A stretch of DNA of 64,000 bases from Escherichia coli (GTDB taxonomy: Bacteria; Pseudomonadota; Gammaproteobacteria; Enterobacterales; Enterobacteriaceae), in NCBI RefSeq assembly GCF_003018115.1, contig NZ_CP027457.1; one strand, given 5' to 3'. A model generated the notes under the pieces. That model was not told the DNA's origin, searched no databases, and was given only the letters and a program-made list of their open reading frames with translations. Every line of letters begins with the position of its first letter. Position 1 is the first letter of the stretch. Positions 1,080 to 64,000 of the stretch are shown in pieces. The position numbers and the translations under genes are program-made.

Positions 1080-1088
1080 TCATCATTA

Positions 1089-1114
1089 CGGCCTCCAGAA
1101 TGAGGCCGTTTTTA
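1089..1114 (+). terminator. Rho-independent terminator after solA
   Basis: Stem cggcctc / gaggccg with 6-nt loop followed by ttttt. Confidence 0.6.
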
Positions 1115-1126
1115 CAGGAGTATTTA

Positions 1127-1240
1127 ATGCGTCGGCTGTTGCACTATCTCATCAATAATATTCGCGAGCATCTGATGCTTTATCTTTTTCTCTGGGGATT
1201 GTTGGCAATTATGGATCTGATCTATGTGTTTTATTTTTAG
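1127..1240 (+). CDS. yceO: small membrane protein YceO (37 aa)
   Basis: ATG 1127 to TAG 1238-1240 encodes [37 protein letters not shown]; too short for the ORF track; expected position between solA and yceJ. Confidence 0.7.
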
Positions 1241-1500
1241 TTTTCCGCACTGACATAAACTGACAAATATTTAATCTCCCTTTCATTTAGCGTGAAAAAT
1301 TGAATGAGATTATTCCTGCTTCTACAGCACTCACCAGACATCTCTGATGCTGAACCCACTAAACTTATGAAGATTCTTTCATTATTAATTCAAAATTATT
1401 GAAATAAAAATAAATATCATTCAATTTGTTATTTTTGTGTTGCAATTCATTCTCCGACACGCCATTTTCTTTCTCTCGCAAATTCGTTTTGGATGCACTT

Positions 1501-2067: not shown

Positions 2068-2070
2068 AAA

Positions 2071-2646
2071 ATGAAAAAAAGCCTGCTTGGTTTAACCTTC
2101 GCGTCCCTGATGTTCTCTGCCGGTTCAGCGGTTGCCGCCGATTACAAAATTGACAAAGAAGGTCAGCACGCCTTTGTTAACTTCCGCATCCAGCATCTTG
2201 GCTATAGCTGGTTATATGGCACCTTTAAAGATTTCGACGGTACTTTTACCTTTGATGAAAAAAATCCAGCTGCCGATAAAGTGAATGTGACAATTAACAC
2301 CACCAGCGTCGATACTAATCACGCCGAACGTGATAAACATCTTCGCAGTGCAGATTTCCTCAATACCGCAAAATATCCACAGGCAACATTCACCTCCACC
2401 AGCGTGAAGAAAGACGGTGACGAACTGGATATTACCGGCGATCTGACGCTGAATGGCGTAACCAAACCCGTCACGCTGGAAGCGAAATTAATTGGTCAGG
2501 GCGACGACCCGTGGGGTGGTAAACGAGCAGGCTTTGAGGCCGAAGGCAAAATTAAGCTCAAGGACTTCAATATCAAGACAGATTTAGGTCCAGCTTCTCA
2601 GGAAGTGGATCTGATTATTTCAGTGGAAGGCGTACAGCAGAAGTAA
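2071..2646 (+). CDS. yceI: periplasmic YceI-family protein
   Basis: 191 aa with N-terminal signal peptide [22 protein letters not shown]; 3 nt after yceJ stop. Confidence 0.9.
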
Positions 2647-2657
2647 GAGTGAAATGT

Positions 2658-2680
2658 TGCCGGATGGCACGCATCCGGCA
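2658..2680. terminator. hairpin between convergent yceI and trhO, likely bidirectional terminator
   Basis: tgccggatg / catccggca inverted repeat with 5-nt loop. Confidence 0.45.
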
Positions 2681-2687
2681 ATGATAT

Positions 2688-3740
2688 TTATTCTGTTGGA
2701 TCAGGAATGCCCAGTGTTGTATTCAGACGTCCACGAGACTTATTAAAGATCTTATTGCCATTTTCACGTCCTGCCCGACGGCGTCGCTGTTCTTCTGGCG
2801 GTAACGCGCTTTCTTCGCAGCAAATCTCACTACAACAACCTTTGTATTTTTCCGCACATACTGGACACTGAATAAACAGCAGGTGGCAGCCATCATTTTT
2901 ACAGTTGGTATGGCTGTCGCACGGCGCACCGCACTGGTGGCAATGCGCAATAATCTCATCAGTTATACGTTCGCCCATCCGCTCGTCAAAAACAAAATTT
3001 TTGCCAATAAAACGCACCGGCAAGCCCTGCTCGCGCGCCCTACGGGCGTATTCAATAATTCCGCCCTCGATATGCCAGACTTTATTGAATCCGTTATGTT
3101 TCATCCAGGCACTGGCCTTTTCACAACGAATGCCGCCGGTGCAGTACATGACGATTTTTTTATCTTTATGTGCCTGCATCATCTCGACTGCTTTTGGCAG
3201 CTGCTCACGGAAGGTATCTGCTGGAATTTCCAGCGCGTTTTCAAAGTGCCCCACTTCATACTCATAGTGGTTACGCATGTCGATAAACAGTGCATCGGGA
3301 TCGTCAAGCATGGCGTTCACTTCCGCCGCTTGCAGATACTCACCAACATTGCTGGCATCAAAGTGAGGATCGTCAATACCGTCGGCAACGATACGATCGC
3401 GGACCTTCATGCGCAGTACCCAGAAGGATTTCCCGTCATCATCCAACGCGATATTCAGGCGTAAGCCATCTAAAGCCGAGTCGAAGGCATAGAGCTGCGC
3501 GCGAAATGTTTCAACATTGCTCGCAGGTACGCTGATTTGCGCGTTAATGCCCTCATGCGCCAGATACACTCGCCCAAAAACATTCAGCGCGGTAAACAGC
3601 TGATATAAAGCGTCACGGGTCGCCTTAGGATCGGCGATGTGGAAATACTTATAAAACGAAATGGTGGTTCGCGGTTCGCTCTCAGCCAACATTTTGGCTT
3701 TTAACGCGTCGTTGGAAATGCGGTTGTGTAACACTGGCAT
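2688..3740 (-). CDS. trhO: rhodanese-domain tRNA uridine(34) hydroxylase
   Basis: 350 aa from ATG at 3740 ([16 protein letters not shown]...), rhodanese motif [10 protein letters not shown] and C-terminal Cys-rich tail; track ORF extends 18 aa further upstream. Confidence 0.88.
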
Positions 3741-3964
3741 GGTGTACGATTCCTGCGAGATGGGAAAGTAAAAATCCGCGGCATGATATAGCAATTATCG
3801 ATAATTAACATCCACATATTTTACGCTACATTTGCGCATTAAAAATTATTTGTTATTTACAAGCGCGGCAATTTCGCCCAGTCTTCAGCCACAAATTTTG
3901 GTTGCGGGCGAAAAAATGCGACAATACATACAATTGCCCGAATAGGTTGAAAAACAGGATTGAT

Positions 3965-4885
3965 ATGACGAATCTACCCAAGTTCTCCACCGCACTGCTT
4001 CATCCGCGTTATTGGTTAACCTGGTTGGGTATTGGCGTACTTTGGTTAGTCGTGCAATTGCCCTACCCGGTTATCTACCGCCTCGGTTGTGGATTAGGAA
4101 AACTGGCGTTACGTTTTATGAAACGACGCGCAAAAATTGTGCATCGCAACCTGGAACTGTGCTTCCCGGAAATGAGCGAACAAGAACGCCGTAAAATGGC
4201 GGTGAAGAATTTCGAATCCGTTGGCATGGGACTGATGGAAACTGGCATGGCGTGGTTCTGGCCGGACCGCCGAATCGCCCGCTGGACGGAAGTGATCGGC
4301 ATGGAACACATTCGTGACGTGCAGGCGCAAAAACGCGGCATCCTGTTAGTTGGCATCCATTTTCTTACACTGGAGCTGGGTGCGCGGCAGTTTGGTATGC
4401 AGGAACCGGGGATTGGCGTTTACCGCCCGAACGATAATCCACTGATTGACTGGCTACAAACCTGGGGCCGTTTGCGCTCAAATAAATCGATGCTCGACCG
4501 CAAAGATTTAAAAGGCATGATTAAAGCCCTGAAAAAAGGCGAAGTGGTCTGGTACGCACCGGATCATGATTACGGCCCGCGCTCAAGCGTTTTCGTCCCG
4601 TTGTTTGCCGTTGAGCAGGCTGCGACCACGACCGGAACCTGGATGCTGGCACGGATGTCCGGCGCATGTCTGGTGCCCTTCGTTCCACGCCGTAAGCCAG
4701 ATGGCAAAGGGTATCAATTGATTATGCTGCCGCCAGAGTGTTCTCCGCCGCTGGATGATGCCGAAACTACCGCCGCGTGGATGAACAAAGTGGTCGAAAA
4801 ATGCATCATGATGGCACCAGAGCAGTATATGTGGTTACACCGTCGCTTTAAAACACGCCCGGAAGGCGTTCCTTCACGCTATTAA
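3965..4885 (+). CDS. lpxL: lipid A lauroyl acyltransferase
   Basis: 306 aa from ATG 3965 ([20 protein letters not shown]...); track ORF starts 21 codons upstream. Confidence 0.93.
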
Positions 4886-4892
4886 ATCTCCC

Positions 4893-4923
4893 ATGCCGGA
4901 TGCTTCAGAATGGCATCCGGCAT
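4893..4923 (+). terminator. hairpin after lpxL, terminator-like or REP-like
   Basis: atgccggatgc / gcatccggcat 11-bp inverted repeat; no clear U-run, so weak as an intrinsic terminator. Confidence 0.35.
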
Positions 4924-5056
4924 TACCACAGCAAATCCCCCTGATTTAGCGATAAAAGCTCTCTGGATTGCGCCCCCTGGAAGTCGGGCGCATAATTAGT
5001 GTGCTTATCTTTTCTTCTTATGTTCACCGCGCCTGGCGCACCAACAGCGGATTGCT

Positions 5057-6283
5057 ATGTCACCCTGTGAAAATGACACCCCTATAAACTGGAAACGAAA
5101 CCTGATCGTCGCCTGGCTAGGCTGTTTTCTTACCGGGGCCGCCTTCAGTCTGGTAATGCCCTTCTTACCCCTCTACGTTGAGCAGCTTGGCGTTACCGGC
5201 CACTCCGCCTTGAATATGTGGTCCGGTATTGTCTTCAGCATTACATTTTTATTTTCGGCCATCGCCTCACCGTTTTGGGGTGGACTCGCCGACCGTAAAG
5301 GCCGAAAACTCATGCTATTACGTTCTGCTCTCGGCATGGGCATCGTGATGGTGTTGATGGGACTGGCACAAAATATCTGGCAGTTTTTGATCCTGCGGGC
5401 GCTTCTTGGTTTACTTGGCGGATTTGTCCCCAACGCTAATGCTCTTATCGCCACACAAGTACCGCGTAATAAAAGCGGCTGGGCGCTGGGTACGCTCTCC
5501 ACAGGCGGCGTTAGTGGTGCGTTGCTCGGCCCAATGGCTGGCGGCCTGCTCGCCGATAGCTACGGCTTACGTCCGGTATTCTTTATTACCGCCAGTGTGC
5601 TCATACTCTGCTTTTCCGTCACCCTGTTCTGCATCAGAGAAAAATTCCAGCCGGTCAGCAAAAAAGAGATGCTGCACATGCGGGAAGTGGTGACATCACT
5701 TAAAAACCCGAAACTGGTACTCAGCCTGTTTGTCACCACGTTAATCATCCAGGTAGCGACGGGCTCAATTGCCCCCATTCTGACGCTGTATGTCCGCGAA
5801 CTGGCGGGTAACGTCAGTAACGTCGCCTTTATCAGTGGCATGATCGCCTCGGTGCCAGGCGTGGCGGCTCTGCTGAGTGCACCACGACTCGGCAAACTTG
5901 GCGATCGAATCGGCCCCGAAAAGATCCTGATTACGGCGCTGATCTTTTCTGTACTGCTGTTGATCCCAATGTCATACGTTCAGACGCCATTACAACTTGG
6001 GATTTTACGTTTTTTGCTCGGTGCCGCCGATGGTGCACTACTCCCCGCCGTACAGACCCTGTTGGTTTACAACTCGAGCAACCAAATCGCCGGACGTATC
6101 TTCAGCTATAACCAATCGTTTCGTGATATTGGCAACGTTACCGGACCATTGATGGGAGCAGCGATTTCAGCGAACTACGGTTTCAGAGCGGTATTTCTCG
6201 TCACCGCTGGCGTAGTGTTATTCAACGCAGTCTATTCATGGAACAGTCTACGTCGTCGTCGAATACCCCAGGTATCGAACTGA
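5057..6283 (+). CDS. mdtG: MFS multidrug efflux transporter
   Basis: 408 aa polytopic membrane protein in conserved position after lpxL. Confidence 0.9.
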
Positions 6284-6365
6284 TTTTTCGCCTTTCATAC
6301 TTGCAAAAGCGGAGAATCAGCTATCCTTTTCCCTGAAACCTCATCAACTCAAAGGGAGAATCGTG

Positions 6366-6740
6366 ATGACCATGTACGCAACGCTTGAAGAAGCCATTGA
6401 CGCTGCACGCGAAGAATTTCTTGCAGACAACCCCGGCATTGACGCCGAAGACGCGAATGTGCAACAGTTCAATGCCCAAAAATACGTTTTGCAGGACGGC
6501 GACATCATGTGGCAAGTTGAGTTTTTTGCCGACGAAGGGGAAGAAGGTGAATGTTTACCTATGCTTAGCGGTGAAGCCGCGCAAAGTGTTTTTGATGGCG
6601 ACTATGATGAGATAGAGATCCGCCAGGAGTGGCAGGAAGAGAATACATTACATGAATGGGACGAGGGGGAATTTCAGCTTGAGCCACCGCTGGATACCGA
6701 GGAAGGACGCGCAGCAGCTGATGAGTGGGATGAACGTTAA
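6366..6740 (+). CDS. msyB: acidic protein MsyB
   Basis: 124 aa, extremely acidic (MTMYATLEEAIDAAREEF...DEWDER); ATG at 6366 one codon inside track ORF. Confidence 0.9.
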   Translation: MTMYATLEEAIDAAREEFLADNPGIDAEDANVQQFNAQKYVLQDGDIMWQVEFFADEGEEGECLPMLSGEAAQSVFDGDYDEIEIRQEWQEENTLHEWDEGEFQLEPPLDTEEGRAAADEWDER

Positions 6741-6968
6741 TCACTCATACGGGCCATGATGAATGTCGATCGGCAGCAGTAAAGTATCAAAAACCAGGGA
6801 GAATGGCAGATCAAGGATTGTGACATAACGCCAGGCGGAGTCACGCACATCCCATTGCACACCGGGATAATATTGGTTGCCATGCCCCTGCCCCGGTATA
6901 GTGCGGCTAATGATGCTGCCACAGCCACTCAGCAAGGTCACCATGATGCTCACCACAATTAAACGCAT
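6741..6968 (-). CDS. yceK: lipoprotein YceK
   Basis: 75 aa with lipobox MRLIVVSIMVTLLSGC. Confidence 0.8.
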   Translation of the reverse strand: MRLIVVSIMVTLLSGCGSIISRTIPGQGHGNQYYPGVQWDVRDSAWRYVTILDLPFSLVFDTLLLPIDIHHGPYE

Positions 6969-7030
6969 TTGATACCTCTTCCGTAAAAAAATACCGGCAT
7001 AACGCCGGTATTTTTATTGGCTCGTTGTTT

Positions 7031-7131
7031 TTGCCAGATGCGACGTGAACGCCTTACCCAACCTACAAAATCTTGCAAAATCAATAAATTGCAGGAACGA
7101 TGTAGGCCTGATAAGCGTAGCGCATCAGGCA
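7031..7131. repeat. REP (repetitive extragenic palindromic) elements
   Basis: tgccagatgcgacgtgaacgccttacc and gtaggcctgataagcgtagcgcatcaggc resemble the E. coli REP consensus. Confidence 0.6.
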
Positions 7132-7140
7132 ACTACGTTT

Positions 7141-11323
<4,183 letters not shown>

Positions 11324-50100: not shown

Positions 50101-50285
50101 GCCACGACGAGGTACTGGCGACCCGCATAGATACGACGATTCGCTATACCAAAAGGGCAGAGTGGATTGGCGATCGTTTTAAAGAACGGGAAATTGCCAA
50201 CGCATTACGTGAAGAGACCGCCAGCTATAATATTGATATTGATGAGGTGATAGCGCTTGCCCGTCAGCAGAAGGAATATCACTGA
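47190..50285 (+). CDS. hsdR: type I R-M restriction endonuclease/translocase subunit
   Basis: 1031 aa from TTG 47190 with AAGGAG RBS; PD-(D/E)xK region then SF2 helicase motifs (TQGSGKS, DECHRTQ). Confidence 0.9.
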   Translation: MSTVGQRERATQQRLIQFFVEDLGYRHLSHRTGYTGNSNIDTNILSAWLKRRGVNDTLITRALRQLDSAAALGEGKKLYYANKEVYRLLRYGVKDKEGAGEQNQTVWLIDWANPQANDFAIADEVTVKGEYCKRPDLVLYVNGIALGVIELKRSSVHVSEGIRQNLDNQKKTFIRDFFTTMQLVMAGNDTQGLRYGTIETPEKYYLEWKEDNPGDYTHKLDFHLSRLCSKSRLLDIVHNYIAFDVGVKKLCRHNQFFGVEAAKQHIARREGGIIWHTQGSGKSLTMVWLAKWIRENVPNSRVLIVTDRTELDEQIESVFMGVNEDIYRTSSGNDLIATLNHPNPWLICSLVHKFGRRSEAEDNAATDAFITELQQSLTKTFRAKGDLFVFVDECHRTQSGKLHNAMTAILPDALFIGFTGTPLMKKDKKKSVEVFGPYIHTYKFDEAVADGVVLDLRYEARDIDQYLTSEKKVDDWFEAKTRGLSNLARTQLKQKWGSMQKLLSSKSRLEQIVNDILLDMDTRPRLMDGRGNAMLVCSSIYQACKVYEMFSQTELAGKVAIVTSYRPDAASIKGEETGEGLTEKLSKHATYRKMLADYFEQSEEKAAARITEFEREVKQRFIEEPGQMRLLIVVDKLLTGFDAPSATYLYIDKTMTDHTLFQAICRVNRLDGEDKEYGYIIDYKDLFRSLDKAITDYTTGAFDDYDRDDVAGLLKDRLEQAQLDLDSALEMVRSLCEPVKTPRSLQDYQHYFCGESGENQTSLNEKEALRLTFYQCVARLLRAYASIANEMPEAGYTAEEVESIRAEVAEFEKLRYEIKLTSGDLLDMKRFEPAMRHLLDMYVRADDSEVLMDFEELSLIELIVEKGLAATVALPDDIRNNQDAMAETIENNVRKTIVDENPVNPKYYGRMSQLLDELITLRRQNALNYQQYLERIRDLCKQVIRPEQTAGACYPATMDTQAKRAFYDNFGHDEVLATRIDTTIRYTKRAEWIGDRFKEREIANALREETASYNIDIDEVIALARQQKEYH

Positions 50286-51001
50286 TGCCAATCATGCAAA
50301 TAGGCTCGTTACACTTGCTGGTCAACCGTAAGGCGATTAAGAATCTGCATATCAGCGTGCTGCCGCCTGATGGCAAAGTCCGCGTTTCAGCGCCGGAACA
50401 TATGACGGAGACGGCGATTCGTATGGCGGTTGCTTCACGCTTTCGCTGGATCAGAAAACAGCAGCAGGATTTCGCCAGACAGCCTCGTCAATCAGAGAGG
50501 GAAATGGTCAGCGGAGAGTGCCACTATCTTTGGGGCCGAAGATATCGCCTACTTGTGATTGAGCGTCACGGGCGTCACGAAGTAAAAGTTGCGGGAAATA
50601 ATAAGCTCCAGCTTTATGTTCAACCGGGAACCCGTGATGAAAATAAGGCATTGGCGTTAAGTGAATTTTATCGACATGAACTAAAACAGCAGGTGGCTAA
50701 GCTTCTACCTGAATGGCAGGACCGAATCGGTGTTCCCCTAACATTCTGGGGCATCAAAAAGATGAAAACCTTTTGGGGCACCTGTAACACTACAACAAAA
50801 CGAATCTGGCTCAATCTGGAGCTAATTAAGAAGCCGCCGGAGTGTCTGGAGTATATTCTGGTGCATGAACTGGTTCATCTTCTGGAACGTCACCATAATG
50901 CTCGCTTCCGGTTGCATATGGATCGGTTTATTCCTGACTGGCGTGAGCGTCGGGATTTGTTAAATAATATGCCGTTAGCGTTTGAGGCATGGGAGTATTG
51001 A
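50285..51001 (+). CDS. YgjP-like (DUF45/M48-type) zinc metallopeptidase
   Basis: 238 aa; HExxH in HELVHLLERHH; ATG overlaps hsdR stop (TGATG). Confidence 0.75.
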   Translation: MPIMQIGSLHLLVNRKAIKNLHISVLPPDGKVRVSAPEHMTETAIRMAVASRFRWIRKQQQDFARQPRQSEREMVSGECHYLWGRRYRLLVIERHGRHEVKVAGNNKLQLYVQPGTRDENKALALSEFYRHELKQQVAKLLPEWQDRIGVPLTFWGIKKMKTFWGTCNTTTKRIWLNLELIKKPPECLEYILVHELVHLLERHHNARFRLHMDRFIPDWRERRDLLNNMPLAFEAWEY

Positions 51002-51452: not shown

Positions 51453-51878
51453 ATGGAACAGAAAATATTATCCTCAGAACCCCGCAGATCATTTTCAAAT
51501 GAGTTTAAACTTCAAATGGTTAAACTGGCTTCACAACCAGGAGCCTCTGTTGCCCGTATTGCCCGGGAACACGATATCAATGATAACCTCCTGTTCAAAT
51601 GGCTCAGGCTCTGGCAGAACGAAGGGCGTATATCGCGGCGTCTTCCGGTAACAATCTCTTCTGGCGCTGGCGTTGAATTATTACCTGTTGAGATAACGCC
51701 TGATGAGCAGAAAGAGCCTATGGCGGCTCTTACTCCGCTTTTATCCACTCCTTCACAAAGCACAGTCAGTGCCAGTTCCTGTAAAGTTGAGTTCCGCCAC
51801 GGTAACATGACGCTGGAAAATCCTTCACCAGAGCTGCTCACGGTGTTGATCCGTGAACTGACCGGGAGGGGACGATGA
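51453..51878 (+). CDS. IS66 accessory protein TnpA (orf1)
   Basis: 141 aa (MEQKILSSEPRRSFSNEFKLQMVKLA...). Confidence 0.8.
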   Translation: MEQKILSSEPRRSFSNEFKLQMVKLASQPGASVARIAREHDINDNLLFKWLRLWQNEGRISRRLPVTISSGAGVELLPVEITPDEQKEPMAALTPLLSTPSQSTVSASSCKVEFRHGNMTLENPSPELLTVLIRELTGRGR

Positions 51879-52225
51879 TCTCGCTCCCATCAGGTACCCG
51901 TATCTGGCTCGTTGCCGGCGTTACCGATATGCGTAAATCCTTCAACGGACTGGGAGAACAGGTACAACATGTGCTGAATGATAATCCCTTCTCCGGTCAC
52001 CTGTTTATCTTCCGTGGCCGACGGGGTGACACCGTCAAAATTCTTTGGGCTGATGCTGATGGTCTGTGCCTGTTCACCAAACGCCTGGAGGAAGGCCAGT
52101 TTATCTGGCCTGCGGTACGTGACGGCAAGGTATCCATTACCCGCTCGCAACTGGCAATGCTCCTCGATAAGCTGGACTGGCGTCAGCCAAAAACATCCAG
52201 CCGTAACTCACTGACAATGTTGTAA
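51875..52225 (+). CDS. IS66 accessory protein TnpB (orf2)
   Basis: 116 aa, ATGA overlap with tnpA. Confidence 0.85.
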   Translation: MISLPSGTRIWLVAGVTDMRKSFNGLGEQVQHVLNDNPFSGHLFIFRGRRGDTVKILWADADGLCLFTKRLEEGQFIWPAVRDGKVSITRSQLAMLLDKLDWRQPKTSSRNSLTML

Positions 52226-52255
52226 AAAACTCCTGACCGCATTATAAAAACGGTC

Positions 52256-53869
52256 ATGAGTCAGAAATACCTCATTCGCATCGCAGAGCTGGAAAGATTG
52301 CTCTCTGAGCAGGCTGAAGCCCTCCGTCAGAAAGACCAGCAACTGAGTCTGGTTGAAGAGACGGAAGCCTTCCTGCGCTCTGCACTGACACGTGCCGAAG
52401 AAAAGATCGAAGAAGATGAACGGGAAATAGAACATCTGCGGGCTCAGATAGAAAAACTGCGCCGGATGCTGTTCGGTACCCGTTCTGAAAAACTGCGTCG
52501 TGAAGTTGAACTGGCTGAGGCTCTGCTGAAACAACGTGAACAGGACAGCGATCGTTACAGTGGGCGGGAAGACGATCCTCAGGTTCCCCGCCAGTTGCGA
52601 CAGTCGCGCCATCGTCGTCCGTTACCGGCACACCTTCCCCGTGAAATACACCGCCTGGAGCCAGAAGAAAGCTGTTGCCCGGAGTGTGGCGGTGAACTGG
52701 ATTATCTGGGGGAAGTCAGCGCTGAACAGCTGGAACTGGTGAGCAGTGCCCTGAAAGTGATCCGCACAGAACGGGTAAAAAAAGCCTGTACAAAATGTGA
52801 CTGTATTGTTGAAGCACCGGCGCCGTCCCGCCCGATAGAGCGTGGTATCGCGGGCCCCGGATTACTTGCCCGCGTGTTAACGGGAAAATACTGCGAACAT
52901 CTGCCACTGTATCGTCAGAGTGAAATCTTTGCCCGCCAGGGTGTCGAACTGAGCCGGGCCTTACTCTCCAACTGGGTTGACGCGTGCTGCCAGTTAATGA
53001 CACCGGTGAATGATACCCTGTACCGTTATGTAATGAACACCCGCAAGGTTCACACTGATGACACACCGGTAAAGGTACTGGCACCGGGTCAGAAAAAGGC
53101 GAAAACAGGGCGTATCTGGACGTATGTCCGGGATGATCGCAATGTGGGTTCGTCATCTCCTCCAGCGGTCTGGTTCGCGTACTCGCCGAACCGGCAGGGG
53201 AAACACCCGGAGCAACACCTCCGCCCCTTCCGGGGTATCCTGCAGGCGGATGCGTTCACAGGTTACGACAGGTTGTTCAGTGCAGAACGTGAAGGTGGTG
53301 CACTGACAGAAGTTGCGTGCTGGGCCCATGCCCGGCGAAAAATCCACGATGTATACATCAGCAGCAAAAGTGCGACGGCAGAAGAAGCCCTGAAGCGAAT
53401 CAGTGAACTGTACGCCATCGAGGATGAAATACGGGGATTACCGGAGTCAGAGCGTCTTGCCGTCAGGCAGCAGCGAAGCAAAGTGTTACTGACGTCGCTG
53501 CATGAATGGATGGTGGAGAAGAATGGTACGCTGTCGAAAAAATCCAGACTGGGCGAAGCGTTCAGCTATGTACTGAATCAGTGGGATGCCCTCTGTTATT
53601 ACAGTGATGACGGTCTGGCGGAGGCGGATAATAATGCTGCGGAAAGAGCGCTTCGTGCAGTCTGTCTCGGAAAGAAAAACTTTATGTTCTTTGGCAGCGA
53701 TCACGGCGGCGAGCGTGGAGCACTGTTGTACGGGCTGATCGGCACCTGCCGTCTGAACGGTATCGATCCGGAAGCGTATCTGCGCCATATCCTGAGCGTA
53801 CTGCCGGAATGGCCTTCCAACCGAGTTGATGAACTCCTGCCATGGAACGTAGTACTCACCAATAAATAA
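52256..53869 (+). CDS. IS66-family transposase TnpC
   Basis: 537 aa with N-terminal coiled coil, CxxC zinc motif (CPECGG) and DDE core. Confidence 0.9.
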   Translation: MSQKYLIRIAELERLLSEQAEALRQKDQQLSLVEETEAFLRSALTRAEEKIEEDEREIEHLRAQIEKLRRMLFGTRSEKLRREVELAEALLKQREQDSDRYSGREDDPQVPRQLRQSRHRRPLPAHLPREIHRLEPEESCCPECGGELDYLGEVSAEQLELVSSALKVIRTERVKKACTKCDCIVEAPAPSRPIERGIAGPGLLARVLTGKYCEHLPLYRQSEIFARQGVELSRALLSNWVDACCQLMTPVNDTLYRYVMNTRKVHTDDTPVKVLAPGQKKAKTGRIWTYVRDDRNVGSSSPPAVWFAYSPNRQGKHPEQHLRPFRGILQADAFTGYDRLFSAEREGGALTEVACWAHARRKIHDVYISSKSATAEEALKRISELYAIEDEIRGLPESERLAVRQQRSKVLLTSLHEWMVEKNGTLSKKSRLGEAFSYVLNQWDALCYYSDDGLAEADNNAAERALRAVCLGKKNFMFFGSDHGGERGALLYGLIGTCRLNGIDPEAYLRHILSVLPEWPSNRVDELLPWNVVLTNK

Positions 53870-53909: not shown

Positions 53910-54284
53910 CTATTTCTTGATTCCTAAACGGAACATATCAGTTGGGAATAAAGGTTGTATTATCACTTCATCATTAAAAATGAATAATTTGGGCGATAAA
54001 GCTGTTACGTCATAGATATTTTCAGCGATTAATCTTAGATTTGACCTAAAAACTGGAATACTTGCATCATCTGCAAAGACAAACATGTCATCGTTTTTTA
54101 CAGAGTTTGCACACAATAGCTCATCAAAACTCTCATAATCAGAATGCCAGATCTCTGACCAAGTAACACTTCCTTTCGCGAGAGGGTACTTATTTAAAAT
54201 GCCCAGAGCCTCCTGCTGAGCCAGCCCCTCTACTATATTAAAATCAGCACTCAGTGCTTCCCGACACTCATCAAATAAAGTCAT
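53910..54284 (-). CDS. putative immunity protein of orphan toxin module
   Basis: 124 aa acidic protein immediately downstream of the orphan CdiA-CT. Confidence 0.5.
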   Translation of the reverse strand: MTLFDECREALSADFNIVEGLAQQEALGILNKYPLAKGSVTWSEIWHSDYESFDELLCANSVKNDDMFVFADDASIPVFRSNLRLIAENIYDVTALSPKLFIFNDEVIIQPLFPTDMFRLGIKK

Positions 54285-54289
54285 TTGCT

Positions 54290-55700
54290 CTACCTGTTTA
54301 GCTGTTTCAATATTGTTTCAAAAGACTTTTCATTGCCTTCAAAAGGTATGACTTGCTTCACCGCTTTTCCAGGGCCTTTACCCTGCGAGTAATCCCATAT
54401 ATTGATGTGTGTGCCTTTTTCAGGATCATAATCAACACGCCAACCAACTTTTCCGTCGCTGGATTGCCGCCCTATGACTTTCCCATTACCAGCGCTGACT
54501 TCCAAACGTCCGATAACTGGCTTAGAGTCCGCTCCTAAATTACCTACAAGATCCAATGCCTTGTTTCGAGCAGTTTCCCAGTTTTTCTCTGGCTTGAGGA
54601 TTTGTTCAATTTTAGGCTGGGAATTCCCTTTAACCTTACTAATTCCCCCAAATGCTGACGCCGCAGCGCTCGCGACTATTCCCGCCTGAACTTCATCCAA
54701 ACCGTATTCTTCTTGGAGTGCTTCCGAGACTTTGTTGGTCGCGACAACCCCTTCAGCCTGCATTTGCTGCGCAAAAGTCGCCGTCAGATCGTAGACCATT
54801 TTGATCGGGATATCTTCACCCAGAGCACGATCTATTGCCTGCTTCACCGCCAGACTGTCAGTCAGTACATCACCGTATTTCTGCTGGCAGGTTGCCGGGC
54901 TGGCTGCACAGTCACTGATCAGTTGCTTTTGCTGTGCCGTACTCAACTCTTCGTACTTTTTGATAATACCGCCGCAGTCACCGCCTTTCGCCTGACAGGA
55001 CTTCATTTCAGCGGACCAAGCATCTATCTGCTTACTGCTCAGATAGTTATTCTCAACAGCATTCTTCCCGCTTTGTGCTCCCACTGCTGCTGATGCGGTG
55101 CTGTTTCCGGTAAGACCTCCGGCCAGCCCTGCTGACACGGTTGCCAGCGTACTTATCGTTTGCTTCTGCTCTTCACTGAGGTCTGACTGTTTCACGCCCG
55201 GATACAGCATGCCGGCAATCGCTCTGACTGCCAGCTCTCCCGTTGCTGCGCCTGCTGCACCGGCAGCAACATTATTACCCTGCATTGCCGCCACTGCGCC
55301 GCCCAAAATGGCGTGAGCAATGGCGTTTACTGCCGGGTCTTTTTCTGTTGATTTCAGCAGGTGCGCCAGTTCCGGAGCCGAAGTTCCGGCCAGAGCACCC
55401 GCTAAATTACCCCCCGCCAGCCCCTGAAGCGCGGCCTGGATACCCCGCTGAATTTCACTGCCGGTACCATACTTCGCCATTTCATCCCTGTAAGCCTGCG
55501 TGTCACGCAGTTTTGCCAGATATGCCTGCCGCTGCTCTTCCGTCGCATCCGCCGGAACAGGCCCATATTTATCCTGCGCAGCCTTCAACGCATTCAGTTC
55601 CCCCTGCGTCCGCGCAATATCAGCCACCTGACTGCCTATGTCACTGATAAGCCCCACTGTCTGCAGACGCTGCTGCTCTTTTTCCTTGTCAAAGATGGAA
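54290..55700 (-). other. orphan cdiA-CT fragment (pre-VENN region plus toxin domain), no start codon of its own
   Basis: VENN motif ([13 protein letters not shown]) about 200 aa into track ORF 54290-55657; frame open to about 55736; upstream part homologous to cdiA pre-VENN sequence. Confidence 0.65.
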
Positions 55701-55742
55701 AAGCAAAAAAACCAGCCAACTGAACTAGCTGGTAGTTAAAGT

Positions 55743-56006
55743 CTATTTGATTTTGCTTAAAATATTATTGACTATCGGTATTACAGAACTAACCAATTGC
55801 TCTTCCTCAACTGTATACAAAAGCAATTCGATCTCATTCTCCGCATTAAATAACATTGTATGGAGCCACTTTTCCTCAACAGCAACAATTTGGCTTTCCG
55901 CAGCATAAATTTCTGATTGAATACTTTGTACCGTTATTTTCCCTTCAAGAAAGTTTTTACAAGAGTGTTGTAACCTCTCGATCACCTCAGGATAAATCCA
56001 ACTCAT
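55743..56006 (-). CDS. putative immunity protein
   Basis: 87 aa; ATGA overlap with upstream toxin-like ORF. Confidence 0.45.
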   Translation of the reverse strand: MSWIYPEVIERLQHSCKNFLEGKITVQSIQSEIYAAESQIVAVEEKWLHTMLFNAENEIELLLYTVEEEQLVSSVIPIVNNILSKIK

Positions 56007-56719
56007 TGCCCACTCCTGCGAAGAATAGTAACAATAATATTACTGTTATTTTCAGTGACTACACCTACGTCACCACTCCAATAAGTCGTTCTAGTTACGC
56101 CATTAACGACACTATTTTGAGGAGTTCCTTCTTTGATAACACTTTCAACCATATTCGGCGTTATATTTCTCCCTGGGCCAACTGTGCCGGCTGGAGAACC
56201 AGATGGCTGCATTCTATCAACAGCATGTTGTGAATACAAACGATGACCTATTTGTGCATATTGTCGCCCATCTACTGTAACCTTTCGATAATTTTGCCAA
56301 GAGTCCCAAGGTAACTTTTCAGAACTATTAGGTACGTTTTCTGATGAGGTTTTCTCATTACGTTGCTCTATTGATTCATTATTCCTGGCGTTCTCCTCAT
56401 CCTGCGGCTCCCATCCCCCCGGTGTTCCAGCACCTGCGCCACCAAGCTCAGCTTTCTCCTTGTCCGTAGCGCTCGCTACGTCTTTGCCCAGATTCGGCTG
56501 TTTGTTTTCGTCTGTATTGTCGCCATTCAGCACATACCCCGGCCCCCGGGCACCATCGCGACTCGGATCACGTACAGCACACTGTTCCCGTGAGCCTTCA
56601 CAACCACCACCGGTATCCCAGCTATTATCATTCCCGGTATCCTTACTGGCATTACCTGTAGCACCAGCTATTGCTGCTGCCGTATTAGCTGCTGTTTCAG
56701 TGGCTATCACGTTCAGCAT
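56003..56719 (-). CDS. putative orphan polymorphic-toxin C-terminal module (no VENN recognised)
   Basis: 238 aa; low-complexity N-terminal half and compact C-terminal domain (VDGRQYAQIGHRLYSQHAVDRM...). Confidence 0.4.
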   Translation of the reverse strand: MLNVIATETAANTAAAIAGATGNASKDTGNDNSWDTGGGCEGSREQCAVRDPSRDGARGPGYVLNGDNTDENKQPNLGKDVASATDKEKAELGGAGAGTPGGWEPQDEENARNNESIEQRNEKTSSENVPNSSEKLPWDSWQNYRKVTVDGRQYAQIGHRLYSQHAVDRMQPSGSPAGTVGPGRNITPNMVESVIKEGTPQNSVVNGVTRTTYWSGDVGVVTENNSNIIVTILRRSGQ

Positions 56720-56736
56720 ATTGTTTTCAGCAACAA

Positions 56737-56955
56737 CTATTTACGATAGTATCTTCGCATTTGTAGATAGAGTTGTAACCAAATCCCAGCACCTCCCCAT
56801 AAGCCAACTACTGCGCCAATTATTCCGTATTTTACATACACCTCAGAAGGTATTGGTTCCCGAGCTATAAGCCAGATACTAACCACTATTCCAATAGAGC
56901 AAGTAGCTATAGATATAAGTAACAACTTAATAAGAAGTAGTAGATGTTTTTTCAT
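56737..56955 (-). CDS. small inner-membrane immunity protein
   Basis: 72 aa, two hydrophobic helices; start overlaps upstream toxin stop. Confidence 0.55.
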   Translation of the reverse strand: MKKHLLLLIKLLLISIATCSIGIVVSIWLIAREPIPSEVYVKYGIIGAVVGLWGGAGIWLQLYLQMRRYYRK

Positions 56956-57870
56956 TTTTTGTCTCCATCAACTTCTTTTTGCGTTGCGCTGCTTGCACCT
57001 TCTGATACGAATGAACCAACAAATCCACCAAATGTTCCTGGTATAGAGCTCATTTGGCCGCCTTGATACATACCGTATCCGATAGACTTTTCCGAATATT
57101 GCAGTGAATATTTACTGGCGTCCATTCCCAGTTGATTTTTGATGTATTGAGCTTCTAACTTATTAGTAATTGAAGCCCCAATGTTATAGCCAAGGCCTGT
57201 ACCAGCCATGCTACCCACTACTGATGCGGTACTGTCCTGGCCTTCAATCTGGCTGCTCATGTAAGCGCTACCGGCACCCAACAACTGATTAGCGTAATAT
57301 CCTTTCCCGGCTGTACCTACACCAGTCAAGCCTGACATCATGAAACTGAGATAATCGAACTTATCACCGATATTTCCCGTACCAATTTGTACCGCACCAT
57401 TAGCCCCATAGCTCAGCCCGGCACTGACAAATTTTTCAGTCAGCGTGGCTGATGATGTTAACAATGAACCCGCTCCGGCAACCGTACCCCAGTAATTTTC
57501 CGGTTCCCCGAAGAAAGCCAGAGCCTTATCACCTTTCGATGTGTTGTTGTTCAGATAGTTCAGGTCATAGCTGTTACTTTCAGTGACGTAGTTCTTCACG
57601 TCCTGGTTTTCCAGCGAACCATACAACCAGCCAGGCCGACCTGCCGCGCTGAGTCCGCCCTCAATATTCCATTTATCTTCCCCGGACAGAGCCGTCAGAG
57701 GATCTGTGGCCACATCAATGTGTAATTTCTGTCGGTGCTCTGCGCTTATTACAGCATATTTATTCTGAATATCGCCGCAGTCTCCACCCACTTTACGACA
57801 GGCCGTCATTTCTCTGTCAAAAGCATGCGCCTCGTCGTAGCTGAGGTAGTTATTCTCAACAACAACTCTT
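56952..57870 (-). other. orphan cdiA-CT, glycine-zipper membrane toxin (EC93-type ionophore-like)
   Basis: Frame upstream of track ORF 56952-57809 reads ...SERVVVENNYLSYDEAHAFDREMTACRK... (VENN at about 57850); C-terminal domain rich in GxxxG motifs. Confidence 0.6.
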
Positions 57871-57960
57871 TCCGACGTAAGTTGCTGCGATGAACCCTAT
57901 TTTCTCCTTGCCTTTCCGTGAATTACAACCGTTTTCCCCTGCTGTACTTCCTGCCTGCCA
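57840..57960. repeat. repeated linker (VENN-encoding segment plus upstream about 90 bp), copy A
   Basis: Near-identical to 59207-59325 (…gagttattctcaacaacaactctttccgac[g/a]taagttgctgcgatgaaccc…). Confidence 0.5.
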
Positions 57961-58173
57961 ACTTTTTGCCCCGACGCGCCTTTTTCGTCTGAACACGCTA
58001 CCGCCCCGGTGAAAAGTCCACCGAGTAAATAGCCTGCGGCTATTTAACATAACGCGCGGGAATTATGCGCAGTTCAGGAGGCCGAACCACGCATAATCAG
58101 CGTTATGTCTTGCGCCCTTCAGAAGCCTGCGATAGTGCAGGCTGACAGTCAGGAGACCCAGACGGTTAAGATA

Positions 58174-58467
58174 TTAACTGTCGGGCTCTCCTTTTTTATT
58201 ATTTTTATAATCAATCATCAAGTTATTCACCTCATTCCATAGTTGCTCATCGTTAAATTCGTATTCTTCACGATCATTATCTGGGTTGTACATATCAGCC
58301 ACACAGAAGACACTGGATAATAATTCACTTAGATTATCATTATCTTGCTTAAGTAGGTTACTATCACGCTCACCCTTCCACTTCGCCATATAAGTGTCGG
58401 TAAAATATTCAGCCGATATATTCTTAGCAAGAAAATCATCAATGTATTTTTTAAGAGACTGACTCAT
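58174..58467 (-). CDS. putative immunity protein
   Basis: 97 aa acidic protein; start overlaps upstream orphan toxin stop. Confidence 0.5.
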   Translation of the reverse strand: MSQSLKKYIDDFLAKNISAEYFTDTYMAKWKGERDSNLLKQDNDNLSELLSSVFCVADMYNPDNDREEYEFNDEQLWNEVNNLMIDYKNNKKGEPDS

Positions 58468-59237
58468 CTTAATGTCCCGTTATTTATGAAGTTTTCATAT
58501 TGCTTCGTTTGAGGATCAAGCTTCCACCCACTAACAAAATTACCAGATTTATCAATTACAACCACATTATTAGTTTGTGGATTGAAGAACACCTTTGATT
58601 CTGGAATTAATAGGTATGTCCCATGTTCATAAGTCGTCTTATTATCTAAATGTGATTTGATGGCAGCCTGATATTCTGCAATGGTATCACTATTTTTCTT
58701 AGTTGTTATTACGCCAAAATCAGAAGCATGTTTAAATTTCTTATCTAACTGTTTTGCGCTGAAAGCGACACTATCAGAGACGATTGTAGCTCCAGCATTT
58801 GGAATTTTCTTCCCTGGAAGTATAAGGCTAGCCAGTATTCCGCCAGTTGCTTCCAGCGCAGCCTGGTTCCCTCCATACGCTTGTTTCACATTCTCTGCTA
58901 CTGCTGACCAGGTTTCACTTTGCATCAGCGCTTTAACGCTGTCTGCCACTGCCTGATTTTTACCCGCCAAATCACTCAGTGCTTTATCACAATAGCTTTC
59001 GCCGGTTGCACATGAGGCGAGCGCCATTGCCGCATCACCCACATAATCGGCTGAGCCTATTGCCGTATCACCGGAGTCAGCGATGACATTAATAATGCCG
59101 TTGGCAATAGCCGATGAGGCTCCGTCTCCCAGCTTATCCCTGACCTGTGTTTTCCACCATTCAGCACTTTGTTTGACCGATTCCCTGGCCTTATCACCCG
59201 CCAGCGAGTTATTCTCAACAACAACTCTTTCCGACAT
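58464..59237 (-). CDS. orphan cdiA-CT with its own ATG just upstream of VENN
   Basis: 257 aa starting MSERVVVENNSLAG; compact C-terminal domain. Confidence 0.6.
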   Translation of the reverse strand: MSERVVVENNSLAGDKARESVKQSAEWWKTQVRDKLGDGASSAIANGIINVIADSGDTAIGSADYVGDAAMALASCATGESYCDKALSDLAGKNQAVADSVKALMQSETWSAVAENVKQAYGGNQAALEATGGILASLILPGKKIPNAGATIVSDSVAFSAKQLDKKFKHASDFGVITTKKNSDTIAEYQAAIKSHLDNKTTYEHGTYLLIPESKVFFNPQTNNVVVIDKSGNFVSGWKLDPQTKQYENFINNGTLR

Positions 59238-59438: not shown

Positions 59439-59822
59439 TCAATTAAGAAGTTCCTTTGATACGTTACCAGTATCAAAAAACTCTTTTAAGATCTTTACAA
59501 TAAGTTCACAGTCTTTTGTAAGCTGAGATTCCGGCCAGTAATCACCAAGAATCACCATTTTTGTATCAGGTTTAGATGAGTCCCAGTACGTTCTTACTTG
59601 GTATTCATCTTCAAAAATTTCACCTAATGTTATCAAGTAATAACCATTCTCCGTTCTGATCTGAAGCATTTCAGCGCTATTATCGCCACTGTTCTGTATA
59701 TCAAGAGTAAGTGTTCCTTTTTTTCCCTGAATTAGTTTAAACTGATTTAATACCATGTCCCAATTTGAGATCTGTTTATTGCCACCTGTTTCGCCCAGTG
59801 TCCAACTCACTTTAAAATTCAT
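59439..59822 (-). CDS. cdiI: CdiI immunity protein cognate to the resident CdiA-CT
   Basis: 127 aa; ATG 1 nt after cdiA stop. Confidence 0.6.
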   Translation of the reverse strand: MNFKVSWTLGETGGNKQISNWDMVLNQFKLIQGKKGTLTLDIQNSGDNSAEMLQIRTENGYYLITLGEIFEDEYQVRTYWDSSKPDTKMVILGDYWPESQLTKDCELIVKILKEFFDTGNVSKELLN

Positions 59823-59823
59823 T

Positions 59824-62800
59824 TTAATCCCTAACCTTGAGAGATTTCATGCCAGGCTGCCAGTAGAGGACTGATCCTGTAGCCTCTTCATAAATTGTTA
59901 AAGATTTTAGCCCCGCTTTATCAGCCATGGCTGCTATATCACCGCGGCAATAACCACATACAGGCTCTTTAGATACACTCATTGTCATCTCACGCCCTTG
60001 AGACATACCCTTTTCAAAAGCTTGCTGTATAACACCTACTTCAGCATGAGCTGTAGCCATATTGCCGTTAGGAAGAGGCTTGTTTTGCTTATCTATTTTA
60101 GCTTGGATTCGTCCATCAATGAGTGTTGGCTTATTCACATCTGCTAAGTTGGAAGGCCTTGCACCCTGATTAGTATCAGTAAACTTAGCTCCATCAACAT
60201 TACCTTTCGCTACGACCTTAAGATTAGCATCAACGATTTTACTTAATTGTTTTGCCGCAGCAGAACCCAAAATTGGTGTCACCGAAGCCGCAATGCTCTC
60301 CAGACCCTGCTTTGTTTCGGTGTAGCTTTCTGCGGTCTGACGATCCACCCCTTTGGTGACCATGAAATAGTTAATCATGGCGTCTTTCACCTGTTGCTGA
60401 TTCTGTGCATCAACACTGGTGATATCGAGGAGATTGACCATCTGACCATACGCATCAGCGTATTGCTGGCTGTATTTCGAGTTATAAGGGCCATCTTCGT
60501 ACCCTTCTTTCGACGCAATAACTTTCAGTCTTGCGCTGGCACACGCTGAACTACCCGCATTACCATTACCGCAGGCAGCAATAACCTCCTTATCACTGGC
60601 AATATCTTTCTCACGCAGAGCATTATATTTCTGTTGCGCCTTTTCGCGCTCTGCCGGATCTTTACTATTTTTAAGCGTCTGTTTTGCTATCTCAAGCTCT
60701 GTCTTTTCAGACACGCTAAGATAGTTATTCTCAACCGCGTTCCTGCCTGCCTGTGCCCCCGTACCGGCAGACGCCGTACTGTTGCCTGCAAGCCCGCCCG
60801 CAATACCTGAGGCAATGGTGGCCAACATGCTGATTTGCTGACGTTCCTGTTCACTCAGGTTATCAGTACGACCACCATAGTAGTTATCAATGATATACCG
60901 GGCTGCAAGTTCACCGCTGAATGCCCCTGCAGCACCGGAAGCCGCATTGTTTCCGCCCAGTTGTGCGGCAAGCGCTCCCCAGACTGCGTGAGCCATCAGG
61001 TTTGCTTCCCGGTTATCGCCGGTGGCCTGTTTTATAAGCTGTGCCACTGCCGGATTCAGACCGCCAGCCAGTATCTGCCCCGGATTCCCTGCATTCAGTC
61101 CGCCCAGCACACCCGTGATGGCCTGTACCACCATCTGCGGCGTACTGCCCGTACCGTAGCCTTTCATGACCTCTCTGTATTCCGGGGTCTCCCGCAACTG
61201 TGCATCGCTCATGCCAGGATGCTCTTTCCTGGCTGCTTTCATCGCTTCAGTTTCGCCATACGTCATGACGATGTTACTCATCTGACCGCTAATCTGGCTG
61301 ATAACCTGCGCTTCCTGCAGACGCTTCTGCTCTTTCTCCCTGTCAAATATCGGTGCAATGCTGCCGTTGGCGTTTTCCGGGTCCCGGCTGAGCCCGGCAA
61401 TATCCTGCTTCTGACTCTCATTATCACGGATAATGAGATTTCCGCCGCTGATGGCGGATGACGTGGTACCTTCAGCATGTCCACTGCTGCCGGACATACC
61501 GGTAAGTGCGTTCGCCGCACCGGCTATTGCATTTGAGGCCACCATCTGGCTGGCTGACATCCCTGAGCCACCCGATAAACTGATTCCGGTATGGCTGGCT
61601 TTATAGTCTGCCTGGTTATGGATATCCGACCAGCCCAGCGTATTGGTATTGAGGCTGTTTTTGTCATCCGTTGCCGTGGACGCAATTACCGCACCATTGA
61701 GCTGAGTGTGATTCCCAACAGTGACATCAAACCCGTCTTTTCCGGCGTAGATACCACTCTGTTCCCGGACAGAATCGTAATTGCTTTTAATTTTGTCCTG
61801 ACTGATGCTGGCATAGCCGCTGCCGGACATTGAGCCAAACGTGAAGCTTCCACCTGCAGCCACGCTGTTCTGTCTGCTGTCGTAACGGTCACTGTCCTGA
61901 AGGCTCGAAATGGTCAGGTTGTTGCCGACATCTGCTGTGACTTTCTCGCCACTGACCTGAGCCCCCGACAGGGTGGTATCACGTCCGCTTGTGAGGGAGA
62001 CATTTTTACCCGCATCCAGCGTGGTTTCGGTCCAGGTCGTGCCGTTGCCTTTCTCCCTGCCCTCTGAACCATTGATACCGGCGAAGATACTGAGGCCTCC
62101 GCCATTGGTTCCACCACCAAAGCTGACGCCCACGCCGCCACCTTTGCTGCTGTTCTTCCCGGTTGTCTGTCGGGTGTCAGCGGCGGCAGCCAGCAGAATA
62201 TCGTTCTGTGCATTCAGGCTGGTGTCATTGCCGGACTTAATCTGGCTCCCGGTAATGAGAATATCGCCGCTGTTGTTATGGTCCTTATTTTTCCCCGTGG
62301 CAGTGACAGAGACATTGTTACCGGCGCTGAGGGTTGAGCCGGAGACGATATCGTGCTGATATTTCGTCTCAGACTTCGACTGCTGATGGTTGAGCGAAAT
62401 GCTCACGCCGATACCATTATTCGGGTCAGCACTCTGTTGCTGCAGTCCGTGGTTAACACCGGCCTGTACACCAGACAGAACCGCCTGTGTTCCTTTCAGT
62501 GCCGCCAGACGGCTGTCGCTGGTTTCTTTCGCCTCCCGGGCCATGGTGGCAGCATTATTGATGGCACTGCCCACTGTGCCGGAAAGGGCAACCGTCAGCC
62601 CGCTTTTCTTCTGCTCAAATTTTTCGTCCACAGTACGACGGTCATGCCCCGGGTCAACCACCACACTGTCACCGGTAATGCTGATATCCCGGTTCGCAAT
62701 CACATCCGAACCGCTGATATGAGCCTGTTTGCCCGCGGTAATACTGACATTACCAGCAGTGGAGCCGATGGTGCTGGCACTCTGACTCTGCGTTGTCCCG

Positions 62801-64000
62801 GCCTCGCGGCGGTCGTGCGTTGTCTTACTGCTGCCAGTGGTGAAACCAATACCGCCGGTACCCGTCAGACCGGATTTCTTCGTTTCCTTAAAGCGCCAGG
62901 ACGTATCTGTACTGGTGGCAGCAAGAACATCAACATGGTTATCCGCCGCCAGTGACACATCCCAGTCAGCCACCACATCCGAACCCTGTACCGTCAGGTT
63001 ATTACCGGCGTTAACGGTCACGCGGTTTCCCGACAGCAGGGAGCCCTTCTCACGGGTGACGCTGTCTTCCGTGATGGTCCGGGTGGTCTGATGGCTGAGG
63101 AGACGGTTACGGGTTTCCCCTGATTCACTGTAGTGATAATCACTTTCCGTGGCAGTACCCAGTACGATGTCATGACCGGCATTCACACGGATATCGCCCT
63201 TTGCCGTTACAGCGGTCGCAACTGAGGTGATATCCCGTCCGGCAGTAACCGTAATGTCACCGCCACTGGTCATGTCTGTTCCCTGCTGCCGGACCGAATC
63301 ATGAACCGTCTTCATGCTGAAAGTGCTGTCGTGGTCACCTGCGCCTGTGGACTCCGCAGCCATGTTCACATCCCGTCCGGCGCGGATAGCCATACTGTTT
63401 TCAGCCGTAATACCGGCAGCCTGGCTGTTCACATCACGACCGGCGGAAAGCATCAGACTGTTCCCGGCAGTGACCGTGGGGGCCACGGCATGAGTTTCAT
63501 ACCACCCGGACCCGCCATAGCGACGACGTTCTCCGGCCTGTATCGCGTTCATGTTCAGGTCATTACCGGCGGACAGTAACACGCTGTCACCGGCAGAAAC
63601 GGCGGCACCGGTGATACTGATATCCCCGGCTGCGCCCATAAACAGTGAGTCCGTTGCCCTGACAGCAGCCAGCGGACCGGTATCCGTTCCGCTGAAATGG
63701 TTATATCCGTTGTTCATCGCCCACTGTTCTGTCCGGGTGAGGTTACTGATGTTTCCGGTGGCGCTTTCCAGGGATACGGTTTTACCGCTGATGACTGAGC
63801 TGATATTGCCGATATCCCCGATGGCCTTCAGGTTCAGTGCACCACCGGCGTTTATCAGTCCGGCATTCAGGTTGTCGATACTACCTGTGCTGTCGAGCAG
63901 GAGGTCATTCTGTGCGTTGATGCTGCCGCCGCTGTTGGTGATATTGCCACCCGCAAGCTGCACGTTGTTCCCGCTGATAACGCTGCCATTATGAAGGGTG
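59824..64000 (-). CDS. cdiA: contact-dependent inhibition toxin CdiA, 3' portion (N-terminus outside window)
   Basis: Frame open from window end to stop at 59824; filamentous-haemagglutinin-type repeats, pre-VENN region, VENN ([12 protein letters not shown], plus strand 60724-60735) and about 300-aa C-terminal toxin domain. Confidence 0.88.

Follow-up and report, generated by a model that had tools for sequence, protein, structure and literature searches.

Among the 21 Escherichia coli CdiA C-terminal (CdiA-CT) types catalogued by the Hayes laboratory in 2024, type 17 is listed as 'MafB19 deaminase, cytosine deaminase' and called uncharacterised, with entry domains of the PtsG kind in STEC 2573 and the SecY kind in 696_ECOL (PMC11630599, Table 2). 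Here we describe a contact-dependent growth inhibition (CDI) locus in a stretch of E. coli DNA of 64,000 nucleotides (contig NZ_CP027457.1 of assembly GCF_003018115.1; hereafter the window), in which the end of cdiA encodes an entry domain joined to a predicted deaminase domain of the MafB19 clade and is followed by a gene for an immunity protein, cdiI. That this is a CDI toxin of deaminase fold with a cognate immunity protein we regard as almost certain, and that it enters target cells via PtsG and deaminates their DNA, with CdiI as the antidote, as likely. Type 17 shares with it the species, delivery by CDI, the pairing of a PtsG-type entry domain with a MafB19-type deaminase and the predicted cytosine deaminase activity; the catalogue entry is, however, itself a prediction, and the likeness to it (WP_077879060.1) was judged from the catalogue's description.

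Other described systems resemble one part of the locus or another. The toxin–immunity pair of E. coli EC3006 has a closely similar entry domain, solved by Bartelli et al. (PDB 6VEK) and described as PtsG-dependent, but its toxin domain, a BECR-fold tRNase, is unrelated to the deaminase, as is its immunity protein (PMC9424206). The deaminase MafB toxins noted in gonococci by Jamet et al., uncharacterised like the toxin described here, carry a toxin domain with the same HAE and VCGYC motifs and are followed directly by an immunity protein, MafI, of the same Pfam family as CdiI (DUF6911). They differ in having a MafB N-terminal domain and its mode of secretion instead of the CdiB/CdiA two-partner system, and in lacking a PtsG entry domain; MafI and CdiI are only 24% identical. 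DddA of Burkholderia cenocepacia (BaDTF1/SCP1.201), a double-stranded DNA (dsDNA) cytosine deaminase with the immunity protein DddI, is likewise an interbacterial toxin with a deaminase fold of the C-terminal-hairpin kind; it is, however, delivered by a type VI secretion system (T6SS) and prefers 5'-TC, whereas MafB19-family enzymes tend to act at C followed by G. SsdA (BaDTF2) and DddB (BaDTF3), both T6SS/Rhs toxins, belong to other clades and differ in motifs (SsdA has an SGW insertion), immunity families and delivery. To our knowledge, the deaminase toxins characterised so far (DddA, SsdA and DddB) all come from T6SS or Rhs systems.

The deaminase reading of this locus was made earlier from the window sequence (the original prediction). 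It is right, but already known both as a kind of toxin and as a prediction, from Iyer et al. (2011), from a Pfam model and from type 17; NCBI, too, names fragments 'cytidine deaminase-like fold-containing protein'. What the original prediction missed, besides that published record, was the bipartite build of the CT and its placement in the MafB19 clade. The additions made here are modest: that DUF6911 has a DddI-like fold, and that PDB entry 6ANZ is the Neisseria MafI of this toxin family.

Architecture of the CdiA C-terminal region

The CdiA-CT had been placed downstream of a VENN motif, over a span that proved to start with the residue following VENN and to take in the stop codon; the 41-letter peptide quoted for it was found in the translation, and both PT-VENN and, upstream, Fil_haemagg_2 domains were matched (Table 1). 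Of this span, labelled as a C-terminal toxin domain with deaminase-like motifs, only the last ~135–139 residues make up the deaminase domain; the first ~160 form a separate membrane-translocation domain. Profile searches matched CT residues 167–297 to Pfam Deam_C (PF24241, 'Putative cytidine deaminase, C-terminal domain'; E 2.2e-51, 131 of 136 model positions), which supports the deaminase reading, and gave a partial match to MafB19-deam (PF14437; E 2.1e-6, model positions 45–112 of 142). PF24241 was also carried by all 84 homologues matched through a word index. When 1.84 billion representative proteins were searched exhaustively, 267 relatives of the toxin domain were returned, ranging in length from ~100 to 4,902 residues. 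Wherever the protein was much longer than the domain, the domain lay at or near the C-terminus, the pattern of a polymorphic-toxin tip. Some of the named relatives are called 'filamentous hemagglutinin' or 'adhesin', others 'MafB family polymorphic toxin' of Neisseria gonorrhoeae; the gonococcal tips (P0058 and P0059) were 51% identical over 94% of the domain, and P0059 has the MafB N-terminal Pfam domain.

The catalytic motifs were largely as first described. The HAE triad is present, with its Glu at a distance of 26 residues from the Pro of the second motif (and its His 30 from the first Cys), but that motif reads PVCGYC rather than PCxxC, Val preceding the CxxC and Pro standing two residues before the first Cys. 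By analogy with known deaminases, the His of HAE is a predicted zinc ligand and its Glu the predicted catalytic proton shuttle; the two Cys of CGYC are predicted zinc ligands. Across the six frames of the 64-kb window (127,996 codons) the pattern H.E-x(20-35)-C..C had a single occurrence, at the toxin domain, and a chance pairing of the two motifs was rejected. In an alignment of 38 homologues, H66, A67, E68, V90 and C96 were at least 90% conserved, as were N59, the PNGN stretch before HAE and the Val before CxxC; C99 was invariant.

These positions agree with the signature given for the MafB19 clade, which was defined within the C-terminal-hairpin division and noted for its ties to type V secretion systems and haemagglutinin repeats: strand 2 ending in N, HxE within helix 2, strand 3 ending in V, +xxCxxC within helix 3, a G opening strand 4 and a beta-hairpin at the C-terminus (Iyer et al., 2011). 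The window domain has N59, H66/E68, V90, C96/C99, the G of 'AGLKSL' before strand 114–119, and a hairpin of strands 114–119 and 125–128. Three positions ahead of the first Cys the family consensus (GKxVC) has a basic residue, where the window protein has Glu. On the signature, the Deam_C profile and the homology to Neisseria MafB, the domain is placed as a MafB19-clade deaminase.

An AlphaFold model built on the homologue alignment (mean pLDDT 95.4) gave the three-layer alpha/beta/alpha fold of cytidine deaminases, in line with the original prediction. HAE and CGYC lie at the N-termini of helices 67–77 and 97–109, and a beta-hairpin closes the domain. With the motifs, the modelled fold suggests zinc-dependent deamination. 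Foldseek with this model reached a best E of only 0.025, and the top matches were mostly cytidine deaminases. Assignment to the DddA-like family (SCP1.201, BaDTF1) was rejected: Pfam DddA-like (PF14428) was absent from the Pfam matches at E up to 10, and hhalign of the family alignment against DddAtox, a query checked beforehand to be 100% identical to 6U08_A, gave a probability of 14% (E 0.0019, or ~0.002) over the motif region only, pairing HAE with HVE and CGYC with CGFC.

The first part of the CT matched chain A of 6VEK, the CdiA-CT of EC3006, with a phmmer E of 3.8e-67 and 114 of 162 residues identical (70%). Both cysteines of the EC3006 entry domain, its disulphide pair, align in the window domain, and Pfam DUF6862 matches part of the same region (E 1.2e-10). 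The CT is therefore, as its sequence reads, bipartite, with a PtsG-type entry domain followed by a predicted zinc-dependent deaminase domain of ~135 residues at the C-terminus. Because the entry domain is so close to a characterised one, the import route is probably the same, through PtsG.

The haemagglutinin repeats, the PT-VENN domain and a small immunity gene downstream are features of a CDI locus. cdiB lies outside the window and was read from the nearest complete genome, E. coli 2014C-4135, where a cdiB of the ShlB/FhaC/HecB type directly precedes a cdiA of 3225 codons and where the stretch of CT plus cdiI is 100% identical to that of the window. By these features the window holds the toxin–immunity end of a complete cdiBAI locus. 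The translation of positions 59824–63999 (minus strand) ends in KVRD and the stop. G+C content falls in steps, from 56% in the CdiA body through 47% and 43% in the two halves of the CT (the entry domain and the deaminase domain, respectively) to 35% in cdiI, which is the usual look of a horizontally exchanged toxin–immunity cassette. PADLOC matched nothing in the toxin and immunity proteins; the pair is thus not a known anti-phage module.

The full-length CdiA (WP_072097551.1) bears the RefSeq/PGAP name 'contact-dependent inhibition effector tRNA nuclease', as do other CdiAs with the same CT. As a description of the CT this name was rejected: the CT holds no nuclease, and no NCBIfam family was matched by the CT, by CdiI or by the whole 1391-residue CdiA fragment in the window. 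The name appears to derive from the conserved CdiA body and is misleading here.

The immunity protein and the DUF6911 family

The cognate cdiI, predicted one nucleotide downstream of cdiA, was confirmed at that position. It encodes an acidic protein (pI 4.6) that matched Pfam DUF6911 (E 1.9e-38) and whose fold matches DddI. When a profile of the CdiI family, made from 32 homologues, was compared with the PDB, one entry was matched, 6ANZ (E 2.2e-10). This entry was deposited as 'Uncharacterized protein / hypothetical protein from Neisseria gonorrhoeae', and the immunity family of the toxin thus has a solved structure that carries no annotation. Its fold, like that of the window CdiI, matches DddI.

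In N. gonorrhoeae CP097461.1 (positions 3543–3959 of the stretch compared), a gene for a DUF6911 protein of 138 residues shares 4 nt with the end of a MafB Deam_C cassette, and the 6ANZ sequence corresponds to this protein over its full length (E 1.2e-86). 6ANZ can therefore be read as the MafI of a Neisseria MafB deaminase. A DUF6911 gene lay directly downstream of Deam_C in five of seven loci (the window, E. coli M8, Neisseria, Pseudomonas fluorescens and Acetobacter), an adjacency conserved across Gamma-, Beta- and Alphaproteobacteria; no DUF6911 was on record at the other two, in Hahella and at the locus of the 4,902-residue two-partner secretion protein. The locus has an immunity partner of the DddI type, and DUF6911 can be read as a DddI-like family of deaminase immunity proteins. 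CdiI presumably binds the toxin and occludes its active site.

The conserved pairing also bears on whether the motifs might be relics, in a domain that is catalytically dead or is toxic by another means such as binding or sequestration. No direct activity data exist for the window protein, and in E. coli 89-3156 the same module stands as a silent, promoterless 'orphan' downstream of a different cdiA. However, the protein keeps all four of the predicted catalytic and zinc-binding residues, each conserved in at least 90% of homologues; the window CT shares one continuous frame with a full-length CdiA, which in the nearest genome is preceded by cdiB; and a dedicated immunity gene has been kept across three proteobacterial classes. 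We consider a relic very improbable.

Substrate and proposed mode of action

From its family, the toxin is fairly likely to be a DNA cytosine deaminase. In a screen of 175 enzymes in vitro, MafB19, defined by the Iyer profile, was one of five families that gave nearly all of the DNA activity; active enzymes acted on both single-stranded DNA (ssDNA) and dsDNA, and those of the MafB19 family tended to favour a C with G after it (Vaisvila et al., bioRxiv 10.1101/2023.06.29.547047). Huang et al. obtained C-deamination of ssDNA from the MafB19 Pfam clade in a base-editor reporter. The DddI-like fold of the immunity protein points the same way.

A deaminase of this kind could instead poison translation by editing the target cell's RNA (tRNA, rRNA or mRNA), from C to U or from A to I. 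One homologue (P0019) is named 'tRNA(Arg) A34 adenosine deaminase TadA', the characterised E. coli CDI toxins are mostly nucleases, many of them acting on tRNA (PMC11630599), and in the screen of Vaisvila et al., from New England Biolabs (NEB), four of the five active families had at least one enzyme whose RNA activity exceeded that of APOBEC3A. Set against this, MafB19-family enzymes scored as DNA-active in the same screen, SsdA, which also has a DYW-like fold, deaminates ssDNA and shows no more than residual activity on RNA (PMC7901873), the fold of the immunity protein is that of DddI, an antidote to a dsDNA deaminase, and the window domain has no extra RNA-recognition module. We judge an RNA substrate unlikely.

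Another alternative is that the substrate is a small molecule, such as a free nucleotide or nucleoside (dCTP/CTP or cytidine, for example), and that toxicity comes from distorted nucleotide pools and not from the editing of polymers. The toxin domain gave a weak match to Pfam dCMP_cyt_deam_1 (E 3.9e-4) and a weak phmmer match to 2A8N, a CMP/dCMP-type deaminase (E 1), but both score below the nucleic-acid deaminase toxins. The family, moreover, occupies the C-termini of polymorphic toxins, experiments on it report DNA activity, and the basic character of the domain (pI 9.1) suits the binding of a polyanion. This makes a small-molecule substrate quite improbable.

Taking DNA as the preferred substrate, the following sequence of events is proposed. 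CdiB would export CdiA, which would bind a receptor on a neighbouring cell; the CT would arrive in the periplasm and be released at VENN, and the entry domain, using PtsG, would bring the toxin through the inner membrane. Once in the cytoplasm, the toxin may deaminate cytosine to uracil in ssDNA and dsDNA. The later steps are proposed by analogy with DddA, which leads to uracil in DNA, Ung-dependent fragmentation, Ung-independent killing by replication arrest, and C:G-to-T:A mutagenesis in survivors (PMC7901873): uracil would build up, with Ung-initiated fragmentation of the chromosome and replication arrest, and survivors would carry C:G-to-T:A mutations. Producer cells would be shielded by CdiI.

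Several points weigh against this explanation. The literature searched holds no assay of the window protein or of any CDI-delivered deaminase, and searches on PF24241, DUF6911, 6ANZ and EcDa01 gave nothing beyond the NEB preprint. EcDa01, an enzyme included in that screen, is known by name only. Equating Deam_C with the Iyer MafB19 profile relies on the signature and the Neisseria homologue, and the NEB authors report that their 'MafB19', the Iyer profile, differs from Pfam PF14437. The Deam_C family profile matched no PDB sequence, leaving the clade without a solved structure, and the hhalign likeness to DddAtox is confined to the motifs. Use of PtsG, finally, is read from the 70% identity of the entry domains alone.

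Should the toxin edit DNA, CDI would give E. coli strains a means of mutagenising neighbours that survive attack, with a bearing on the origin of resistance mutations, as shown for DddA, and the domain of ~135 residues could serve as a compact enzyme for base editing or methylome mapping. The shared DUF6911/DddI fold would mean a common ancestral pair for the MafB19 and DddA toxins and their immunity proteins. We give about an even chance to the joint reading that the window toxin is the first experimentally tractable CDI-delivered deaminase and a contact-dependent DNA mutagen entering via PtsG and acting in a C-then-G context, and that the MafB19 and DddA pairs share a single ancestral pair, which passed between T6SS, Maf and CDI scaffolds.

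Distribution, variant alleles and neighbouring modules

The exact CT/cdiI module was present in three of 5,426 complete E. coli genomes. Variant CTs were found in about 10 further E. coli genomes at 82–85% DNA identity and in eight at ~74%. A 'distant' blastn search with the toxin domain found 11 E. coli genomes, an undercount: it missed the 82.5%-identical CT locus of strain M8, whose translation is a deaminase CT, and others found by megablast (H4–H10). The frequency is accordingly put no more closely than between roughly 13 and 21 of the 5,426 genomes. Near-identical toxin domains, grouped with this one at 90% identity, are found in Citrobacter braakii, C. youngae, Erwinia billingiae and Raoultella; by these sequences, the cassette moves between genera of the Enterobacterales.

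The sister allele of E. coli M8 (positions 2579–3900 of its stretch) has the same entry domain, and its isolates come from mouse, bat and bovine sources (H4–H9). Compared with the window, its toxin domain is 73% identical and its DUF6911 immunity protein only 39%, the pattern expected of separate immunity groups, which the two alleles probably represent. Differences between the toxins are grouped behind the CxxC helix and ahead of the PNGN loop; those between the immunity proteins are concentrated in the first ~90 residues, while the C-terminal helix is conserved.

Table 1. Features of the cdiA–cdiI locus and of the orphan modules that follow it (window positions)
Feature	Position	Strand	Evidence or remark
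CdiA reading frame	window edge 64000 to TAA stop 59824-59826	minus	translation; single open frame, 5' end beyond the window
CdiA body, C-terminal part (filamentous haemagglutinin repeats and pre-toxin region)	60736..64000	minus	Pfam Fil_haemagg_2, E 9.3e-44
PT-VENN pre-toxin domain	60724..60864	minus	Pfam PF04829, E 4.8e-17; residues 654-700 of query 60724-62823
VENN motif, end of PT-VENN and start of variable CT	60724-60735	minus	codons checked by script
CdiA-CT, 299 residues and stop codon	59824-60723	minus	begins at the residue after VENN
Cytoplasm-entry (inner-membrane translocation) domain, CT residues 1-162	60238..60723	minus	phmmer to PDB 6VEK; Pfam DUF6862
Predicted deaminase toxin domain, MafB19 clade / Pfam Deam_C, 139 residues	59827..60243	minus	
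H-A-E motif, start of helix 2, domain residues 66-68	60040..60048	minus	conserved; helix 67-77 in model; His and Glu at CdiA residues ~3152 and 3154
C-G-Y-C motif, start of helix 3, domain residues 96-99	59947..59958	minus	conserved; helix 97-109 in model
cdiA stop codon TAA	59824-59826	minus	checked by script
cdiI, 127 codons	59439-59822	minus	ATG at 59820-59822; 1 nt (59823) from cdiA stop; product 127 residues
Orphan 1: CT with colicin D domain, start ...VVVENNS	58464-59237	minus	immunity gene 58174-58467
Orphan 2: Gly-rich CT of 285 residues, VVVENNYLS just upstream in frame	56952-57809	minus	followed by hydrophobic open reading frame of 72 codons, 56737-56955
Orphan 3: DUF4258 CT after VAENN	56003-56719	minus	followed by open reading frame of 87 codons, 55743-56006
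Orphan 4: pre-toxin fragment of 455 residues, internal VENN	54290-55657	minus	followed by 'CDI toxin immunity protein', 53910-54284

After cdiI, four orphan cdiA-CT/cdiI modules lie at window positions 53910–59237 on the minus strand, each with a remnant of the VENN junction (Table 1). The C-terminal half of the second orphan CT is long, hydrophobic and rich in Gly, Ala and Ser, and its 72-residue partner looks like two transmembrane helices; this CT resembles the alpha-helical ionophore toxins described in PMC11630599.

Between the orphan array and a gene for an M48 metallopeptidase (50285–51001), the window carries one IS66-family element (tnpA, tnpB and transposase; 51453–53869, plus strand). 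E. coli 2014C-4135 is accordingly a close relative and not the assembly from which the window derives: 99.2% identical to the window over 12.6 kb, it has three IS66-family elements in the same place (691–8431 of the stretch compared).

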